The notes below the pieces were generated by a model, which was not told where the DNA came from, did no database searches, and saw nothing but the letters and a program-made list of their open reading frames with translations. Shown here one piece after another: positions 2,245-47,322 of a stretch of DNA of 64,000 bases; the stretch's first letter is position 1; the number at the start of each line of letters is the position of its first letter. The stretch covers positions 96,001 to 160,000 of the IMG/VR virus record IMGVR_UViG_3300049988_000245. One strand, written 5' to 3'. Origin of the DNA: a virus (lineage: Duplodnaviria; Caudoviricetes). Both the position numbers and the translations under genes were made by a program.

Positions 2245-3306
2245 TTACGCGTAGGTGAAGCACACCAGGGCGGAACCGACCGTTGCCGTGCCAGTGACGG
2301 AGAGAACGAGGTTCGTCTCGGACGTGGTCGGGAAGCGGTAGGTTGGGGTCACAACGTAGGTACCCGGAACGCTGAGATCGATGGCATTGCCGTCGAGCAG
2401 GCGAGAGAGGTTCGCGTTGTCACCAACCGTGATGTCCAGGGTTCCGTCGAACGCCGTGGTGACTTCGACGGAAATCTCGACTACGCGGGCGCCGTTGCCG
2501 ATCGAACCGAGGACGGTCGAAGCAGCGGTTGCCGGGGTCAGGATGACCGAGGAGGTCAGGGCGTCGGAGCGAGCCGAGTCCTGGGTCGCCGTGCAGACGA
2601 AGGCTGAACCGGTCCACGTGTAGGTGGCCCACTCGCCAGACGCTGCGTCGGTTGCGATGCCGGAGGCGTCGGTGACGAACACGGTGTCACCCGCGTTGAG
2701 GCCGGTGAGGGCGTCACGTGCGGCGATGGTCGGGACGATGTTGTTCTTCGAGGCTGCACCGTTCGCGGCAACGCCCTTGGCGCCGACGTAGCGGTAAGCT
2801 TCGACGTAGATGCCATCGGCCGCGACCGTGACGTTGCCGCCCGGCGAGGTCTTTGTTCCCGGAATGCCACCGATGAACGTGAGCACGCCAGCGACGGAGT
2901 CGAACACCCACTCCTCGCCGGTTTGATCCGGGAAGATACGCGCGGACTTGGTCGTATTCGGATCGCCGATGTACGCCTTGACCGCGTAGGACGAACCGAA
3001 GGTCGCCGGGATGAAGTCACCGAGGCCCGCGAGCCATGTAAGGTTCAGGGTCGAGGTGCCATCGACGGACAGCTTGACGCGGTTCGCACCGGTCAGCTTC
3101 GAAACGACCGAGGTGGACGCCGCAGGAGCGACGGCCGGGATATCGGTGGTCTTGGTCTGGGTCCAGATGTTGTCCGCGAAGATGGTGATCGGCGAGGCAA
3201 TCGTCTCGTTCGAACCGGCCTTCTTAGCGGTGGTATCCGACTTGGATACGCCGAAGGCAACCTTCTTCCAGAGTAGGTCGAGCTTTTCGGAATCAGAAAT
3301 AGCCAT
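2245..3306 (-). CDS. virion structural protein (beta-rich, tail/baseplate-associated)
   Basis: Thr/Ala/Gly-rich 353 aa ORF, SD AGGAGG upstream, in structural operon. Confidence 0.6.
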   Translation of the reverse strand: MAISDSEKLDLLWKKVAFGVSKSDTTAKKAGSNETIASPITIFADNIWTQTKTTDIPAVAPAASTSVVSKLTGANRVKLSVDGTSTLNLTWLAGLGDFIPATFGSSYAVKAYIGDPNTTKSARIFPDQTGEEWVFDSVAGVLTFIGGIPGTKTSPGGNVTVAADGIYVEAYRYVGAKGVAANGAASKNNIVPTIAARDALTGLNAGDTVFVTDASGIATDAASGEWATYTWTGSAFVCTATQDSARSDALTSSVILTPATAASTVLGSIGNGARVVEISVEVTTAFDGTLDITVGDNANLSRLLDGNAIDLSVPGTYVVTPTYRFPTTSETNLVLSVTGTATVGSALVCFTYA

Positions 3307-3322
3307 GTGTCAATTCCTCCTA

Positions 3323-5146
3323 TTAGTTCGTGAACGAAAGCGAGGTGATTGACTGACCTGCGTTCAGCTTGAAGCGAACGAGAATCTGGTTACCCGTCGA
3401 GTTCGTCGAGGACTGAGTACCGAAGGTACCAACGAAGGTGCCACCGTTACCAGACATAACCGTACCCAGGGCGCAGCCCGTGGTCGGATCGCCTGCTTCA
3501 CCGGGGACGCCCGCGCCGTCGTACGGCAGGTACATGTTCCACCAACCGTTCGCGTCAGAGCCGGACGGGGAGATGGAGGAGTTGTCCGAGACGCCCGGAA
3601 GCTTGATCTGGCAACCGGCGTAGTTACCGGCAACGACGATCGAGAACTTGGAGACGGCCGAACGGTTGAACGAGAACGTCACGTACTGGACGCCAGCCTG
3701 CGTGGACAGGTTCGGACCAGCCGGGAGGTAACCGACCGAGTAGTTGGTCTGATCGGCGCGGAGGACACCAGCGACGACAGCGGCTTCGTACGTGGCAAGA
3801 GCGACGGACGGGTCGAAGGTCGTCGCGGCAGCGGCCGGGGTATCGCCGTTCGCGGTGTTGACGCGAACCGCATTGTTGTTGTTCGGGAGAGCGCCGAGTC
3901 CGGAGACAGGTACGTTCATCTCGTAGACCTTGCCAGCCTGGGTACCAGCCATGACGAGGACGTTCGTGGCAAGACCAGCAGCGCCGGAGCCGTTGACGTT
4001 CTTAGCAGTGGCCGAGAGCGTACCGACAGCGAACACGTTCGAGCCGTTAACGTTGACGGTCACCGGGGTGATCGCCGTGGCAGCGGTGGTGTTGCGTGCG
4101 ATCGGGGTGGTGATACCCTGAGCGCCGTAGGTGTAGCTCTGAGCGCCGATGATGCCGTTTGAGCCCGAGACGACGAGCGGATCAGAACCACCGTAGTAGG
4201 TCTCGCCGGAAAGGTTGGCGACCGAGAGACCGAGCGTCAGGGTTCCGCCAGCGTTGTAGTGAGGAACACCCGAGGAGTACGAAACCGTGCCGAGGGTGCT
4301 CTGAGCCACAGTAGCCAGCGTCACAGCCGGAACCGCAGTCATACCGTCCTTGACGAAGTAGATTTCGTTGGATGCCGAAGCAGCCGTATCAGTGAGCTTG
4401 ATCTTGTTGACACCGTTCGAGGAGGTCGGACCAGCCACGGCAACATCGATCGACTTCCAGAATCCAGGGGTGGAAACCGGGTAGTCCTTCTGGTCGCTGA
4501 TCTGGAGACCGCCGAACGTACCAGCGTCGCCCGAACCGGTGAGCGTCTTAGAACCGACAACTGCGCCGTTTAGAAGGAGCGAGATGGTGCCGGAATCCCC
4601 CGGACCAACGTCATTGAGTGTGTTGGTGGTCGGATTGTTGACGATACGAGTAACCGACTGGCCAGCCGCATACGGCGAGGTGGTCGAGTTGTCCGGAACG
4701 CCGCCAGCGGCGAGGAGCGGGGTGTTACCGGTAGCGTTGTTGATCGAGATCGCGCCGTTCGGGAACTGCGGGGGCTGTGACGGGATGAGCTTCGCCAGAA
4801 CTTCGTTCAGCGAATCCACGGCGTCAGACACCTTGGTCGTATTGGTCAGTGCGATCGCGCCGGGTTGCCAGGAGCCGTCACCTTTGGAGGAAACGTCGCC
4901 TAGATTGAGATCAAATCCATCGACGTTGCCGATCGCCGTAGAGGCGTTAGACTGCACCTGCTGAAGCTGGGAGAGCGTCACGAGATCGTTCAGCGCCACG
5001 GCGTCCTTACCCTTGACGTTCGTCAGGGAGCCGGTTGCAGTGACGGCTTCGAAATGTCCCGAGTTAGCGACGAACTTAGGTCCAGCCTTACCGAACTGAA
5101 CCTGCGTACCAACGCCAACAAGGCCGAAATTCTTTGTATCAGCCAT
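3323..5146 (-). CDS. virion structural protein (607 aa, Gly/Ser/Thr/Asn-rich)
   Basis: Long ORF with beta-rich composition; SD AGGAGA and TAAATA box upstream. Confidence 0.6.
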   Translation of the reverse strand: MADTKNFGLVGVGTQVQFGKAGPKFVANSGHFEAVTATGSLTNVKGKDAVALNDLVTLSQLQQVQSNASTAIGNVDGFDLNLGDVSSKGDGSWQPGAIALTNTTKVSDAVDSLNEVLAKLIPSQPPQFPNGAISINNATGNTPLLAAGGVPDNSTTSPYAAGQSVTRIVNNPTTNTLNDVGPGDSGTISLLLNGAVVGSKTLTGSGDAGTFGGLQISDQKDYPVSTPGFWKSIDVAVAGPTSSNGVNKIKLTDTAASASNEIYFVKDGMTAVPAVTLATVAQSTLGTVSYSSGVPHYNAGGTLTLGLSVANLSGETYYGGSDPLVVSGSNGIIGAQSYTYGAQGITTPIARNTTAATAITPVTVNVNGSNVFAVGTLSATAKNVNGSGAAGLATNVLVMAGTQAGKVYEMNVPVSGLGALPNNNNAVRVNTANGDTPAAAATTFDPSVALATYEAAVVAGVLRADQTNYSVGYLPAGPNLSTQAGVQYVTFSFNRSAVSKFSIVVAGNYAGCQIKLPGVSDNSSISPSGSDANGWWNMYLPYDGAGVPGEAGDPTTGCALGTVMSGNGGTFVGTFGTQSSTNSTGNQILVRFKLNAGQSITSLSFTN

Positions 5147-11134: not shown

Positions 11135-12271
11135 TCAGAGCTTGAAATCCGAGAAAGTACCTGAATCCACGTCCTGCTTGGTCTGACCGATCGTGTATTG
11201 CGTGATCTCGGTCTCCTGCGGTGCCACCTGCACCTCAGCACCGGAAATCCACTTGGCCGTCCACGGGAGAGGATTAGCCTTCTGCGGGTAGATCGGCGAC
11301 AGGCCGACCGCGACCAGACGCTTGTTGGCGATCCATTCGACATAGTCGGACAGGAGCGCATAGTTGAGGCCGATCATGCTCCCGTCCTTGAACAGGTACT
11401 CGGCCCACTCCTTCTCCTGGGTGACCGCGTCGGAGAACAGCTTGGTGCATTCCTCCTTGGTCTCCTCGGCGATCTTGGCGAAGTCCGGATCGTCCTGTGG
11501 TAGAATCTTGATCAGCGTCTGGGTGGCGGCGAGGTGAAGATTCTCGTCGCGGCAGATCAGCTTGATGATCTTCGCGTTGCCTTCCATCCGCTTAACCTCG
11601 GCATACGCCCAGGAGCAGGCAAAGCTCACGTAGAACCGAACACCCTCAAGGATGTTCACGCTCATGATGGCCATCCACAGAGCCTTCTTAAGCTCGTATA
11701 GGTCCACCTTGACGGATTCGCCGTTGATCGTGTGCGTACCCTCGCCGAAGAGGTTGTACAGCCCCTCCAGGCGAATCAGGTTGTCATAGTGCTCGGAGAT
11801 GTCCTTGGCGCAATCGACGATCTCGCCGATGTCCATCATCTCATCGAACACCTGGGATGGATTCGGGTAGACGTTCCTGATGATGTGGGTGTACGACCGG
11901 CTGTGAATCGTCTCCGAGAACGCCCACGTGGTGATGAACGCCTCTAGCTCGGGGAGCGAGACGATCGGCAGGAACGCGATGTTGGGGGACCGACCCTGAA
12001 CGGAGTCCAGTAGAATCTGACGCTTCAGATTCGACGTGAAGATGTGCCGTTCGTGATCAGTGAGTTCCTTGAAGTCTTTTGCGTCCTTCATCACGTCAAC
12101 CTCCTGAGGTTGCCAGAAGAACGATAGTTGCTTCTCGGTTAGTTTGTCGAACTGACGATACTTCATCGTATCGAATCGCTGAACGGAGACGCCTCCATTG
12201 GGGTCCAAGAACGCAAGCGCCTGAGTATGGTCTTTACGAGAATTTGCATCAAATACGGACATAAGTAACAC
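11135..12271 (-). CDS. nrdB: ribonucleotide reductase class Ia beta subunit
   Basis: FFWQPQEVD, DSVQGR, ETIHSRSY, DENLH, PQETE motifs. Confidence 0.97.
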   Translation of the reverse strand: MLLMSVFDANSRKDHTQALAFLDPNGGVSVQRFDTMKYRQFDKLTEKQLSFFWQPQEVDVMKDAKDFKELTDHERHIFTSNLKRQILLDSVQGRSPNIAFLPIVSLPELEAFITTWAFSETIHSRSYTHIIRNVYPNPSQVFDEMMDIGEIVDCAKDISEHYDNLIRLEGLYNLFGEGTHTINGESVKVDLYELKKALWMAIMSVNILEGVRFYVSFACSWAYAEVKRMEGNAKIIKLICRDENLHLAATQTLIKILPQDDPDFAKIAEETKEECTKLFSDAVTQEKEWAEYLFKDGSMIGLNYALLSDYVEWIANKRLVAVGLSPIYPQKANPLPWTAKWISGAEVQVAPQETEITQYTIGQTKQDVDSGTFSDFKL

Positions 12272-12851
12272 TCCAATCTTTGCAGTTGCCGCGTTTGGCG
12301 GGATAATCTTGTTTCTTCGTCAAGCGATCTCGAAAGGCTTGATAAACTTTCGGCCACGCTACCTTAAATCTATGCTCGTTTTCTTGGCACCAAGATTTTA
12401 GGCAGTCGGACGCGAAAATCTCGCCCTCCGGTGACCGAATTTCAGAAGCTTTGCTGTTTGGATTGCTGCTTCCAGTCCGAGACACCCCATACATGCCATT
12501 GGCCTCGCCGTAGTGAGGACGGTGATTGGGATGAGTCTTCCCGTACATGCCATTCCGACACCCTGACACATCCCGTCCGTTGTTCCCTCCATATGCGCTG
12601 GGGCTTATGTTGTAGAAATCCGGACTTTTGGCTGCATCATAGGAATCAAGGTAGTGCTGCTCGCGCTCCTGAATTCGAGAATCATCAACGTATTCAAGAA
12701 TGATTCGTTCAAATGAATCTCTACCATATTTTATGTAGGCTCGGCGGAAGTGCTTACCTGATCCGACGTACGAGCTAGAATCTAAGCCAGAATGTCGGCC
12801 AATATACTTCTTACCGTCAAGCTTATTAGTCCAAAGATATATGAATCCCAT
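12249..12851 (-). CDS. GIY-YIG homing endonuclease with NUMOD3-like repeats
   Basis: GFIYLWTNKLDGKKYIGRH; NGMYGK/NGMYG repeats; AT-rich; overlaps nrdB 5' end. Confidence 0.9.
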   Translation of the reverse strand: MGFIYLWTNKLDGKKYIGRHSGLDSSSYVGSGKHFRRAYIKYGRDSFERIILEYVDDSRIQEREQHYLDSYDAAKSPDFYNISPSAYGGNNGRDVSGCRNGMYGKTHPNHRPHYGEANGMYGVSRTGSSNPNSKASEIRSPEGEIFASDCLKSWCQENEHRFKVAWPKVYQAFRDRLTKKQDYPAKRGNCKDWSVTYVRI

Positions 12852-12904
12852 GAACGGATGATACCAAAGGGTATCACCCGTTCTCAACTTCGAAATGTCG
12901 AGAC

Positions 12905-13129: not shown

Positions 13130-13244
13130 CTGAATCTCTCTCGTATAAGGATTCGACGAACAAATTTGGTTCGACGAAAATACCAATTGCATGGTTAACG
13201 GGTGTTTGGCAAGGTGGACGTACGAAAATCAGAAAGGTTCTAAT

Positions 13245-14096
13245 ATGCCGTTTAACCGTCGCGGGATTCTCGCTGGCCTCCTGGGAACGCCCCTGGGGAT
13301 CACCGCACTGAAGGCGATGCCGCTTCCGGCAGAGACCCAGAAGGCCATCGCGTTCACCCCCGAGGTGCAGAAGGCGGTCGAGAACATTCCCCCGCTCCCG
13401 ACCCCGAAACGCAATCTGCATCCGTTATTCGGATTCCAGACGATCGATGCCGAGCTTGGGTTCGCCTATACCCTGCGCAGCCGATACTCAGATGCGGTGA
13501 CCCTTGCGAATCCTGAGCCGCGCATCTCGATCCAGATTAACAAGGTGGTTGCTGGGGGTACATATTACCCGACGATGGACGCGGCCGAGGACGCGATCTT
13601 CAGTAAGTTCGCCATCACCCATCGCGAGGTGAGAAGCCCAGACAACCCCGAGCATACCAAGTTTCACCTCGTGCGGGCGGCGAACCGGATCGCCCAGACG
13701 ACCCGGCGCGGCATGGGTAACGTCATTCTCGTCCATCGGGATGACCTGCATCTACTCGATACCCCGTGGGTGGCCAACGTGATCCCCGAGCGAATCGGGC
13801 GGTGGTCGAACGTCGGGTTCACCCACAACCGAGTCTCCCAGGTCTGGGTCACCGACCGCCGTGTTCCTGCGATCCCGCACGGGAACGCGCTTGTGGGTTA
13901 TCGCGGATCGGAGTTAGACGCCCCTGCCGTTCTCACGTATCATCCGGGCTTTGGATACAGCTACGCGATGAACGAGAAGCCGGAAACCTACATGCACGTA
14001 GTCGGACTGACTGTGAAAGCCCGAGCGCCCCATACGGACGAGGCTATATGGGCGGAAGAGAAGCGGGGTGCCGTACGCCCCGTTCGCGCCGCATGA
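13245..14096 (+). CDS. Tat-leader protein made of T4-type major capsid protein segments
   Basis: N-terminal NRRGILAGLLG; GFQ...LG..YTLRSRY, RISIQINK, RAANRIAQTTRRGMGN, LVGYRGSELDA match gp23-family motifs. Confidence 0.75.
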   Translation: MPFNRRGILAGLLGTPLGITALKAMPLPAETQKAIAFTPEVQKAVENIPPLPTPKRNLHPLFGFQTIDAELGFAYTLRSRYSDAVTLANPEPRISIQINKVVAGGTYYPTMDAAEDAIFSKFAITHREVRSPDNPEHTKFHLVRAANRIAQTTRRGMGNVILVHRDDLHLLDTPWVANVIPERIGRWSNVGFTHNRVSQVWVTDRRVPAIPHGNALVGYRGSELDAPAVLTYHPGFGYSYAMNEKPETYMHVVGLTVKARAPHTDEAIWAEEKRGAVRPVRAA

Positions 14097-14287
14097 AGCG
14101 GCCTTCCTTAGAGAAGATCGCCCAGGCCCTTCCTCGCTCGCGTATCATGGCAGGCGAGTACACCTACCCGTACGCCGAGGGTGGGCCTCAGCGGCGGGTC
14201 TTCTACGCAGATGTGGGCACGCTTCCCCCGGAGGCGGCCAACCGATTCATCAAATCGCTCATGGAGAAGTACGATGGAACGTCGTAG
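14093..14287 (+). CDS. 64-aa portal (gp20) fragment-like protein
   Basis: GPQRRVFYADVGTLPPEAANRFIKSLMEKY resembles gp20 APERRIFYIDVGNLP..KA..Y...VM..Y; ATGA coupling to upstream gene. Confidence 0.65.
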   Translation: MKRPSLEKIAQALPRSRIMAGEYTYPYAEGGPQRRVFYADVGTLPPEAANRFIKSLMEKYDGTS

Positions 14288-14810
14288 CCTTCTCGCGGCC
14301 GGTGCTGCCGCGATCACCGGTCTGTTCGGCGCCAAGTCGGCTCAGGCGGCGCCCTCGGGCGCTCTCACTCTGGACGAAGCCACGCGGATCGTCGTCGGCA
14401 ACGTTCGTAATCCGCCTGCCCCGGAGGAGATTCAGCGTCTCATCGCGGGGATCAATATGCAGGTAATGAACCGGCTTACCCAAGCTGGCATCGTTGACCC
14501 GCAATACGTAATGACGAGCGCCGTGGTTCGCTTCCGGGGGCAGGTGGTCGAGGCCAAGACACGTAGGCTCTCTTCGCGTTACACGTTCGGAGAGAATGTC
14601 CCGCCGATCGTGCAGGCCGAGGTCGAAGCCACGTTGGTCGAGAGCATCGTGCAGGAGATCACCGCAGAGTTGGTCCGGCCCGAGAACAAGGGTATCCAGT
14701 ATTGTCCATACGAGTTGGTCACCAGTTCCGGGGTCATCCTCGATCCGGAAACGCTCAACCCCACGATATTCTTTCTGACCCGTTTTGGGACCTTCGTGAA
14801 AGCCGCATAG
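14274..14810 (+). CDS. Tat-leader protein made of major capsid protein segments
   Basis: MERRSLLAAG..AQA leader; VEAKTRRLSSRYTF, QEITAE, YCPY..SSGVILDPETLNP..F.TRFG. Confidence 0.78.
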   Translation: MERRSLLAAGAAAITGLFGAKSAQAAPSGALTLDEATRIVVGNVRNPPAPEEIQRLIAGINMQVMNRLTQAGIVDPQYVMTSAVVRFRGQVVEAKTRRLSSRYTFGENVPPIVQAEVEATLVESIVQEITAELVRPENKGIQYCPYELVTSSGVILDPETLNPTIFFLTRFGTFVKAA

Positions 14811-30860: not shown

Positions 30861-31454
30861 TTATTTATCACTAAACGGTATATCGCTTCCGGAGTATGGA
30901 TCGGATATTACGATCGTCGTATCGCGATACATGAAGTTTCCCTCATGGAGATCAAGATGAGAGCCAGCAGGTTTGGCCCTTAGCAGATTTTCGATTGATT
31001 CCATCAGACTCTCAAGATGAAACTTCGCATTATTAGAATTGAAGATGTCAATCTCCGCCTGAACCATAGGCACACCATAGAAACGACGCTGAATATGATC
31101 GACTTGGTCGTGGAGCCTCATATATCGGTATTGCTGGTCAGACATCTCGCGGAGAACTTCAATCCGAACCATCGCGCCGTATCCGGGCAGGCGTATGACC
31201 TTCCCGATGATCTTAGGCATATGCGGGTCTTGGCGATTCTTGATTGCATAGTTGAGGAATTGCTCGTAAAAAGGGTCCTTGAACACCTTCAAGACGTATC
31301 GAGAATCGAATGAGGGGTGATCGAATACCGCACCATACGATCCTGATCCGAGATAGTCGAACCCGCGATCTTCCAGATAATCCACAACGTCCTGCACCTT
31401 TTTAAAGGTGGCGGCGACGTGTGAGCGAACGCCCTGTAGCTCGTCCAGACGCAT
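30861..31454 (-). CDS. protein kinase-like protein
   Basis: LGSGSYGAVF glycine loop, VLK lysine, DLHEGNFM catalytic loop, ISDP metal-binding site. Confidence 0.8.
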   Translation of the reverse strand: MRLDELQGVRSHVAATFKKVQDVVDYLEDRGFDYLGSGSYGAVFDHPSFDSRYVLKVFKDPFYEQFLNYAIKNRQDPHMPKIIGKVIRLPGYGAMVRIEVLREMSDQQYRYMRLHDQVDHIQRRFYGVPMVQAEIDIFNSNNAKFHLESLMESIENLLRAKPAGSHLDLHEGNFMYRDTTIVISDPYSGSDIPFSDK

Positions 31455-31879
31455 TAGAACGGGCCTGCGTCCCCAGGAGCGGCATCGGCGCCAACAACGC
31501 CATTCTGCTTCTTCATGTTCGTCTTGGCCTGCGAGACGGCCATGCTGGAGACCTTCTTGGCGTTCTTCTCAGCCTCGGCTTCGCCATTCGCGTTGTCGCC
31601 TTCACCTTCACCCGGATTGTTCAGGGCAAAATACACACGATCGCCTTCAATCTTGGTAATCATCTTGACCTCGGCCGGGTCGAGTACATGCATGACCAGG
31701 GCACGGTCCACGGACACGCCAGATTCAAGTTCTCCCATCTTATCGACGATCGCCTGAATCGACACATATGGGACACCCTGGGCCGCGAGCGGCATCAGCA
31801 TGTCCAGCATGGAGTCGCGTAGTTCCTGAACGACACTGCCGCCCTCCGGCTTTTGTTCAAAGATTTCGAGTAGCAGCAT
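31454..31879 (-). CDS. hypothetical head-associated protein
   Basis: In head-gene cluster; ends KKVSSMA..AK pattern. Confidence 0.5.
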   Translation of the reverse strand: MLLLEIFEQKPEGGSVVQELRDSMLDMLMPLAAQGVPYVSIQAIVDKMGELESGVSVDRALVMHVLDPAEVKMITKIEGDRVYFALNNPGEGEGDNANGEAEAEKNAKKVSSMAVSQAKTNMKKQNGVVGADAAPGDAGPF

Positions 31880-31891
31880 CGTTCTGGGTCC

Positions 31892-32344
31892 TTACTTGAT
31901 CTTGTTCGGGTCGAGGGCGCCTGTCTGCATAAGCTGAGCAGTAACCAGATCGGTCATAACGGGCGAATCAGACGTCTTCGCCCCGACCGTACCAGCCAGA
32001 GCCTTTACGCGATTCGCCATCGCAGCCTTGTTGCCAAGGTTGGGATCGGTCTTCATCTTATCAGCGAGCTTGGCCGCCTGACCCATCATCTGCGAGGAGA
32101 TGGGCTTGGAGGGCGTCTGCGTACCGGTCTGGCCGGGCTTGGCCGTGCTCGTGATGCCGGGGGCTCCGTTGGTGGAGTTCGGCTGTGTTTGACCGCCAGC
32201 AGGCGTCGGAGGAACCGGAGCGACCGTATCCTCGTCAACCTCTTTGCGATCGAAGAGACGGCCAACGATGCTGGCCGAACCCTTCTTCTTCGGGGCGGAA
32301 TCGCCCGCACACGCCTTGTCTGCGTGGCGGGACGTTATTTTCCC
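31892..32344 (-). CDS. -1 frameshift extension of upstream scaffold-like protein
   Basis: Open -1 frame from slippery G GGA AAA; no own ATG until late in the frame. Confidence 0.7.
   Translation of the reverse strand, partial: GKITSRHADKACAGDSAPKKKGSASIVGRLFDRKEVDEDTVAPVPPTPAGGQTQPNSTNGAPGITSTAKPGQTGTQTPSKPISSQMMGQAAKLADKMKTDPNLGNKAAMANRVKALAGTVGAKTSDSPVMTDLVTAQLMQTGALDPNKIK
32304..32344 (-). other. programmed -1 ribosomal frameshift element
   Basis: GGGAAAA heptamer, 6-nt spacer TAACGT, hairpin CCCGCCACGC-AGACAAG-GCGTG(T)GCGGG. Confidence 0.75.
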
Positions 32345-33252
32345 GGCGCAGACTCCCGAACGATCTCGACAACATCGGAGAAGTCGATGCCAAAGTGGCG
32401 AGCGATGGTCTTCGCGGCCGGGACCGGCTTGGCACCCTCGCGGATCGCACGACGGAACATCTTCAGGATACGAGCGTCGGACTCGGAGACTTCGTCCTTC
32501 TTGGCGAACGGATTCTCGTCCTTGTCGCAATCCTTGTCCTCATCCTCACAATCGTCCTTCTTCTCGGACTTGTCGGCATCCTTGGGAGCGAACGGGTTCA
32601 CACCCTTCTTGCCCTTGACGAACTCGCCTTCCTTGATGGCCTTGCCACGCGGAGCGGCGGATTCCTTCTTAGCGCGGCCAGCGGCGGTTGACGCGTCGGC
32701 GCCGAAGGCGTCGTCCAGACCAGCGTCCGCATCAACCACACCCGCCTCAGGCGCCACAGGGGCGCCCATCTCGGGAGCGATGGCCGGAGACGCCGCGTCC
32801 ATGCCGCCCATGTCGGGAGCCGGAGCCGCAGCAGCCGGGTCACCCATGGCGGACATATCGTTGCCGGGGGTCTCGCCGTTCATGATGCCTTCGAACTTGC
32901 CGACCTCGGAAGAGATCGCGTCCTTGGCCTGGGAGACCGCCATAACGGTGGCGTTGATCTTCTCGGAAACGATCGACTGGAACTGCTCGGCCATCTGCGG
33001 ACCGAAGGCCGCCTTCAGGGGCTCCATGATCGGCATGATCTCATCGCCGTTCACCTTGGCAAGGTCTTCGGCAATCTTCTGGAGCTTGTCCACGATGGAC
33101 TTCGCGGCGAGGACAACCTCAGCCTTCTCAAGCTCGGACTCGATGAGGAAGGCTAGACCAGTCTTCGACTGAGCTTCCTTCAGGTTCTTAAGCTGCGCCT
33201 GAAGAGCATTCTTTCGACGCATCATCTCAGCCAGTTTGGTCTTCTTGCTCAT
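32335..33252 (-). CDS. prohead scaffold/core-like protein
   Basis: LIESELEKAEVVLAAK..DKLQK coiled coil, acidic Ala/Pro/Gly linker, KKGVNPFA motif. Confidence 0.6.
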   Translation of the reverse strand: MSKKTKLAEMMRRKNALQAQLKNLKEAQSKTGLAFLIESELEKAEVVLAAKSIVDKLQKIAEDLAKVNGDEIMPIMEPLKAAFGPQMAEQFQSIVSEKINATVMAVSQAKDAISSEVGKFEGIMNGETPGNDMSAMGDPAAAAPAPDMGGMDAASPAIAPEMGAPVAPEAGVVDADAGLDDAFGADASTAAGRAKKESAAPRGKAIKEGEFVKGKKGVNPFAPKDADKSEKKDDCEDEDKDCDKDENPFAKKDEVSESDARILKMFRRAIREGAKPVPAAKTIARHFGIDFSDVVEIVRESAPGK

Positions 33253-47061: not shown

Positions 47062-47139
47062 TGGCGCGTCGTAACGGAGTCGAACCGATATTGCCCTGAG
47101 TGAAGGTCAGGTTTCCTAAGCCAATTAGAAGAACGACGC
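47062..47139 (-). tRNA. trnE: tRNA-Glu(TTC), C33 variant
   Basis: GCGTCGT/ACGACGC acceptor, anticodon loop CCTTCAC, TTCGA T-loop, encoded CCA. Confidence 0.88.
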
Positions 47140-47169
47140 ATTTCACCCGTCACGGTGAAAACTGGTAAA

Positions 47170-47245
47170 TGGCGCCCCCAGCCGAAGTCGAATCGGCGTC
47201 CCTGCACTGAGAATGCAGTATCCTGGGCCACTAGACGATGGGGGC
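47170..47245 (-). tRNA. trnE: tRNA-Glu(CTC)
   Basis: GCCCCCA/TGGGGGC acceptor, loop TTCTCAG, encoded CCA. Confidence 0.92.
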
Positions 47246-47247
47246 AT

Positions 47248-47322
47248 TGGCGCACACGACGAGGATCGAACTCGCGACAACCGCATCGACAGTGCGGTAC
47301 TCTACCACTGAGCTACGTGTGC
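47248..47322 (-). tRNA. trnD: tRNA-Asp(GTC)
   Basis: GCACACG/CGTGTGC acceptor, loop CTGTCGA, encoded CCA. Confidence 0.92.

Follow-up and report, generated by a model that had tools for sequence, protein, structure and literature searches.

The gene on the minus strand at positions 33252 to 32335 of the DNA examined here (64,000 nucleotides of a virus, positions 96,001 to 160,000 of the IMG/VR record IMGVR_UViG_3300049988_000245; hereafter the window) is very probably subject to programmed -1 ribosomal frameshifting on the heptamer G GGA AAA, so that what appear to be two reading frames would be one gene decoded in two ways. The open reading frame (ORF) begins with ATG at 33252, stops with TAA at 32337-32335 and encodes a protein of 305 amino acids (aa; P0001), its last sense codons and stop being CCG GGA AAA TAA. 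Past the heptamer the -1 frame reads GGG AAA ATA ACG and stays open for 148 codons, as far as a TAA at 31894-31892 (P0005). The predicted trans-frame product has 453 aa and the junction ...ESAPGK/ITSRHADK; trypsin would cleave inside this junction peptide, at GK/I.

The arrangement was first noticed in a first-pass annotation made from the sequence alone, which described the gene end, the heptamer at 32344-32338 and the adjoining stop, all present at the positions it gave, and an open -1 frame of about 148 codons reaching 31892, which we also find. It interpreted them as a -1 frameshift that yields products of about 305 and 453 aa from a head scaffold-like gene that is not a tail chaperone. 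The comparative evidence given below speaks for the frameshift, for the two products and for a gene outside the tail-chaperone class; the head scaffold-like label is not supported.

The proposed slippery site and its RNA context

The window has 165 ORFs of 100 aa or more on its two strands. In 3 of them an in-frame heptamer of the form X XXY YYZ lies within the last 15 codons, and 33252-32335 alone among these three has a heptamer abutting the stop together with a long -1 frame. We compared the window with 12 related loci, each from a different sample or assembly, giving 13 in all; since these loci share kinship, counts across them are not independent trials. The upstream proteins of the 12 loci range from 95% down to about 43% identity, and the giant phage of the window comes from leaf metagenomes, the clade as a whole from leaf, silage and others. 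Searching viral and metagenome contigs with alignment A1 yielded 8 loci; two of them, L005 and L011, were useful. The first-pass annotation had proposed conservation of the heptamer and the downstream frame among related phages as a check on its reading, and in all 12 related loci both are kept. The gene ends NNG GGA AAA in 13 of 13 loci; in L018 the end is G GGA AAA AAG followed by the stop, which adds a heptamer A AAA AAG. In each locus the -1 frame runs for 123-408 codons without a stop (in L021 as far as the contig edge), and the +1 frame is closed within 4-40 codons.

The codons at this site are not those the genes otherwise prefer. Elsewhere in the 13 genes glycine is encoded by GGC or GGT (GGA 0-11%) and lysine by AAG (AAA 0-9%), and in the window gene, outside the heptamer, GGA accounts for 0 of 21 glycine codons and AAA for 1 of 34 lysine codons. 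Because GGA and AAA are so rare, the heptamer is evidently selected as nucleotides and not for the Gly-Lys residues it encodes. The codon that precedes GGA varies among CCG, CTG, ACG and CGG, and its last base is always G though the residue differs. At the protein level, a search returned 88 homologs of P0001; in an alignment of 24 of them, the protein finishes with ...GK in 21 cases and with ...GKK in one, all at the same alignment position, and the remaining two (P0037 and P0039) run on in frame. A nucleotide search of 50,697 phage records gave no match.

At 32344-32350, beside the heptamer, run X2 also contains a minor divergent contig, with a depth of 4 and about 88% alike, that carries one insertion and one deletion within 6 nucleotides (nt) and keeps the net frame. 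This contig probably represents a related strain in which another codon precedes the glycine.

Downstream of the heptamer we find the 10-bp GC-rich stem with one bulge that the first-pass annotation placed at 32331-32304, and two further pairs lengthen this core stem to 32334-32302. Of the windows tested over the 8 kb around the site, 99.6% fold less well than the 45 nt that begin 3 nt past the heptamer. In each of the 13 loci a predicted hairpin begins 3-6 nt past the heptamer, with energies of -17 to -27 kcal/mol, and ranks in the best 0-2.6% of windows within its own locus. The sequence of the stem varies between lineages; its position and strength are kept. The comparison rests on folding each locus separately, since registers differ among loci and a MAFFT-based RNAalifold consensus is weak. 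When the loci are aligned without gaps, 77% of the cells of a nine-pair consensus are paired, against 68% in shuffles, and double changes exceed those of all of 500 shuffles, which indicates covariation above shuffles. No T-run follows the hairpin, no terminator-like sites were called on the minus strand, no promoter-like sites were called on that strand between 32335 and 31892, and an Rfam search of the frameshift site returned no family.

A third element may lie on the other side of the heptamer. The sequence GGGAG, which resembles a Shine-Dalgarno (SD) element, is present at the same offset in 7 of the 13 loci and absent in 6. In those seven loci it involves the CGG codon of a conserved ..VRE.. 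motif, and no other arginine in those genes uses CGG. It is possible that GGGAG acts as a stimulator in addition to the hairpin and the abutting stop; since it is missing in six loci, we rate that role as possible and no higher. The elements of the site and of its products are collected in Table 1.

Table 1. Features of the proposed frameshift gene in the window
Feature	Position	Strand	Remarks
Short-product 0-frame ORF, 305 aa (P0001)	32335..33252	-	N-terminal helical hairpin, disordered acidic/basic linker, small C-terminal three-helix bundle
Slippery heptamer G GGA AAA, X XXY YYZ register	32338..32344	-	Identical in 13/13 loci
0-frame stop TAA	32335..32337	-	Abuts heptamer in 12/13 loci; TAA, TGA or TAG
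-1 frame extension (P0005)	31892..32338	-	148 codons plus stop; Pro/Thr/Gln-rich linker, then conserved domain
Downstream stem-loop	32302..32334	-	Core 10-bp stem with bulged U, 32331-32304; 7-nt loop; -20.5 kcal/mol
GGGAG, SD-like element	32353..32357	-	8 nt upstream of heptamer; created by Arg codon CGG
Three-helix domain of extension, ~65 aa	31904..32119	-	Alignment A5; helices 9-22, 31-45 and 49-66 of modelled 72 aa; pLDDT 85
N-terminal helical domain, residues 1-124	32881..33252	-	Helices 3-26, 32-83 and 85-124; conserved across RaK2-like phages
C-terminal three-helix bundle, residues 257-301	32350..32484	-	pLDDT about 90; motif ..DF.DVVEIVRE...

The shifted frame and how it may be reached

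The -1 frame past the heptamer behaves as coding sequence that lacks a beginning of its own. The first-pass annotation had remarked that it contains no ATG until far inside, and the first ATG, GTG or TTG indeed lies 83 codons past the shift site, inside the conserved domain and without an SD sequence; the corresponding stretches without a start are 74 codons in L013 and 63 in L022. The protein sequence that this stretch of the window would encode is conserved in L014 and L022. L013, the 95% relative, differs from the window at 26 positions of the extension; 20 of these are third positions of the -1 frame, and 19 of the 26 differences are synonymous and 7 are not. What the extensions of the loci have in common is a conserved segment of about 65 aa, and an exhaustive profile search with this domain found 47 cluster representatives at E<=1e-3.

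Five single-ORF proteins with the extension domain (P0039, P0095, P0105, P0107 and P0112) score against the upstream-gene profile as well, with E of 1e-49 to 1e-97, and in all five the parts follow in the order N-terminal helical domain, ..DVVEIVRE.. bundle, extension domain; P0095 (653 aa) has the extension domain twice. Their architecture is the one that a -1 shift would yield in the window. The long C-termini of homologs of about 480-520 aa (P0043-P0057) and of L006 and L007 are something other than the extension domain, which was not found there when the extensions were compared with them by BLAST. Atu_ph07 gp044 aligns weakly with the extension, and a search with the extension alignment limited to proteins of 715-2040 aa gave no match and is uninformative either way.

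We picture the decoding as follows. Most ribosomes would read CCG GGA AAA and stop at TAA, producing the 305-aa form. In a fraction of them tRNA-Gly and tRNA-Lys would slip by -1 in tandem, from GGA AAA to GGG AAA; alternatively, the P-site tRNA-Lys might slip while the stop sits in the A site, with an identical protein as the outcome. Slippage would be favoured by the GC-rich hairpin 3-6 nt downstream of the heptamer and perhaps also by GGGAG on its 5' side, at a distance of 8 nt, and by slow reading of the stop codon next to it. Slipped ribosomes would continue through ATA ACG and the rest of the 148 codons to make a minority 453-aa form, which would gain a flexible Pro/Thr/Gln linker and the conserved three-helix domain. 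Frameshifting would in this way set how many extended subunits are made per short one, as it does in other structural genes of phages that use a -1 shift. We infer the slippage itself, its efficiency and the role of the extra domain from the sequence. Three tRNA genes lie in the window, at 47062-47322 on the minus strand (Glu-TTC, Glu-CTC and Asp-GTC); none of the phage tRNAs of the window serves the slippery-site codons GGA or AAA.

Several observations weigh against this account, and a number of them would suit two separate genes instead, with the downstream frame translated by internal initiation or by termination-reinitiation and the GK-stop end and the hairpin unrelated to recoding. The locus L028 (40% identity; SRR30952582 contig, 2880-3600) is without the heptamer, and its extension domain lies in an ORF of its own (210 aa, +1 frame), which starts at a GTG that has AAAGG before it and overlaps the upstream stop; the extension module is thus able to exist as a polypeptide by itself. 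In L020 and L011, which stop with TGA, an ATG coincides exactly with the junction (AAA ATG A). Several other loci have a GTG 9-22 codons into the -1 frame, among them L014, L017, L005 and L016 at 9-17 codons; some of these candidate starts have GGAG or AAGG upstream. Gene callers, too, call the downstream ORFs: they split the gene in every public contig inspected, and in the 9 of 10 (L013-L022) that have a call past the stop the extension is a gene by itself. To these points must be added the kinship of the 13 loci, the finding that nucleotide and tblastn searches turned up no member of the frameshift clade among cultured phages, and our reliance on other bacteria in taking G GGA AAA to be slippery in the host of this phage. 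Independent initiation is possible in some lineages. As an explanation for the clade, however, we judge two separate genes to be improbable. The long stretches without a start codon in the window, L013 and L022 would have to be passed over even though they are conserved as protein and change mainly at synonymous sites, and the window's first start would fall within the domain and without an SD sequence. Candidate starts are not positionally conserved, and several lie within the hairpin. The junction ATG is an automatic result of an AAA TGA stop, and the starts called in databases are arbitrary internal codons, 0-340 nt past the stop, so that the database proteins for the extension are N-terminally truncated artefacts. 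Separate genes also leave the fixed G and the rare GGA AAA in 13 of 13 loci unexplained.

Other explanations fare worse. Hairpins at the ends of genes are common, and the heptamer, stop and hairpin might serve mRNA stability, processing or a folding pause while the -1 frame goes untranslated in this clade. We consider this very unlikely, because that frame is open for 123 codons or more everywhere, its domain recurs in 47 protein clusters, its substitutions are biased toward synonymous ones, and five homologs carry this domain as an in-frame fusion. Slippage of RNA polymerase on the A-run, which would add an A to some transcripts and so give the long form, would make a product differing from the ribosomal one by an extra lysine at the junction alone; productive transcriptional slippage in bacteria, however, requires runs of about 8 or more A/T, and the run here is 4, whereas a conserved GGG before the A-run and a hairpin at frameshift spacing fit a ribosomal slip. 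We give this route hardly any weight. Least credible of all is the idea that the two frames are really one 453-aa ORF, broken by an error of sequencing or assembly or by a frameshift mutation that inactivated it recently. Such a reading can point to the in-frame fused homologs and to the fact that one added base in the A-run joins the frames, but the same arrangement is seen in 13 loci of different samples or assemblies, and a random frameshift would not land on a perfect heptamer of rare codons in each lineage. In addition, contigs of three other studies (leaf and silage metagenomes) span the heptamer unchanged, with zero indels, which excludes assembly error.

The protein family and its genomic setting

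By its profile match, P0001 is a member of phrog_14154, a virion protein family of RaK2/121Q/PBECO4/Atu_ph07-type jumbo phages: its residues 1-207 match this family ("virion structural protein") with E 1.4e-25. A tblastn search with the N-terminal ~130 aa found matches in 86 records of RaK2-like jumbo phages, which include RaK2, K64-1, 121Q, PBECO4, GAP32, CBB, PA5oct, Atu_ph07 and Phosso and in which the homologous gene is often annotated as a virion structural protein. The cultured homologs are single ORFs of varied length (PBECO4 gp477, 210 aa; Phosso, 593 aa; Atu_ph07 gp044, 771 aa). No cultured record covers 80% of P0001, and tblastn of the extension against phage records, cultured ones included, gave no match.

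An AlphaFold model of P0001, built with 24 homologs, consists of a long helical hairpin, a disordered region at residues 131-254 that is acidic and then basic, and the bundle at 257-301. Fold searches with the N-terminal domain returned generic coiled-coil helical hairpins and uncharacterised jumbo-phage proteins (BFVD). As modelled, this helical-plus-disordered architecture is compatible with many roles. The extension domain has no PDB match at E<=0.001; searches of the PDB and the Atlas gave weak rows only, homeodomain-like or three-helix, and Pfam and PHROG scans of other proteins that carry the domain yielded nothing informative. The idea that the extension domain is a tandem duplicate of the bundle in the short form was dropped when hhalign showed no relation between them. 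The domain looks like a portable module. It also stands at the extreme N-terminus of P0123 (930 aa) and P0126 (869 aa), neither of which has a Pfam or PHROG match.

The label of head scaffold-like gene finds no support in these results. P0001 matches phrog_14154 and has neighbours in nucleotide metabolism, no scaffold family in PHROG or Pfam matches it at E<=1, and its gene is not beside portal, protease or capsid genes. In the related phAPEC6, the annotated scaffold gp226 and protease gp227 adjoin the capsid gene gp225 (PMC7247149). A role inside the head may be possible. The source record is 265.9 kb long and estimated to be 57% complete, and a full-length capsid gene or head module was not found in it; a search for Peptidase_S77 gave no match in this record, nor in control genomes, and is hence uninformative. 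Matches to Pfam Gp23 (T4-type capsid) occur in small ORFs of 150-300 aa, in the window at 13191-14810 (plus strand) and at G000:C1:175996-176457. The other half of the first-pass description, that this is not the usual setting of a tail chaperone, agrees with what we find: there is no match to a chaperone family, the gene is not placed between tail tube and tape-measure genes, and the genes around it are exonuclease-like, kinase-like and DUF7178.

More fully, the neighbours of 33252-32335 are a fragment of an RNase H-like exonuclease, small unknown genes, a DUF7178 protein and an exonuclease, with tail fibre and ribonucleotide reductase genes farther along the window. Two genes at 30861-31879 (minus strand) lie directly downstream of the frameshift gene; the product of one, 141 aa, weakly matches the virion-protein family phrog_15050, and that of the other, 197 aa, is a relative of the T7 gp0.7 kinase family (phrog_15752, E 1.7e-13). 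The neighbourhood in PBECO4 is similar to that in the window. At 12249-12887 (minus strand) there is a homing-endonuclease-like ORF (phrog_314, E 3e-27) that adjoins upstream, and overlaps, the ribonucleotide reductase small-subunit gene at 11135-12271.

Relation to known frameshift systems

Phage T7 gene 10A/10B is the familiar case of a -1 frameshift in a capsid gene that gives a minor form with a C-terminal extension. The major head protein of Lactobacillus phage A2 is likewise made in a C-terminally extended form by a -1 frameshift, according to its citation in PMC10885494 (ref. 41). Like these two, the gene described here codes for a structural protein, has a slippery site close to its 3' end with a structure downstream, and has a predicted minority form that carries an extra C-terminal domain; by analogy with them both forms are presumably built into the virion. 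P0001 belongs to another family than the T7 and A2 proteins, being neither a major capsid protein nor of the HK97 fold; its gene has another heptamer, which directly abuts the stop, and the phage is of the jumbo myovirus type.

The tail assembly chaperone G/GT of phage lambda is produced by a -1 frameshift on G GGA AAG. Our site shares with it a nearly identical motif (G GGA AAR), the -1 direction, a common N-terminus for the two products, and the existence of relatives that are fused alongside others that are frameshifted. It differs in that P0001 is by family a virion component with a coiled-coil N-terminus, without a chaperone match and outside a tail tube/tape-measure context. In E. coli dnaX the signal consists of an upstream SD-like element, the heptamer A AAA AAG and a downstream hairpin; in signals of this type the SD-like element stands about 8-14 nt ahead of the heptamer. 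The layout here may be alike in its three parts, with GGGAG 8 nt upstream (in 7 of the 13 loci), the heptamer and a strong hairpin. In dnaX, however, a stop follows almost immediately after the shift and the product is shortened, whereas here the shift would add 148 aa; the heptamer is G GGA AAA, and the SD-like element is not universal in the clade. Tail chaperone frameshifts are treated as a general class in PMC10885494.

Closest in ancestry are the phrog_14154 proteins of cultured phages (PBECO4 gp477, 121Q gp27, Atu_ph07 gp044 and those of PA5oct and RaK2), which have the homologous N-terminal helical domain of about 130 aa; synteny of the PBECO4 type is likewise shared, with a small virion gene downstream and exonuclease and ribonucleotide reductase genes nearby. 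In contrast to the window, the members in the cultured phages that we inspected are single ORFs. Our literature search found no paper that connects this family, or RaK2-like phages, with a frameshift. Structural proteins that gain a domain through frameshifting are already known; what would be new, judging from the comparisons above, is the instance in this family.

It is tempting to go further and to suppose that the frameshift meters minority extended subunits of a head-internal or core protein, and that the appended module is a portable docking domain of jumbo phages that tethers cargo or partners at a fixed stoichiometry. We regard this as speculative and unlikely to be right as it stands; if it is true, it would amount to a modular virion-targeting system not yet described.

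Our general understanding of frameshifting is unchanged by this finding, and its significance lies elsewhere. Routine annotation of programmed frameshifts in phages is limited to tail chaperone genes, and recognition of the present site would correct the annotation of a conserved virion protein in an uncultured clade of jumbo phages. The site is compact and has three candidate stimulators, the SD-like element, the hairpin and the abutting stop, which makes it a convenient test case for frameshift predictors. In a larger context, a two-part protein that appears in fused, frameshifted and split states may offer a natural series in which to ask why a fixed ratio of short to long forms has been selected.

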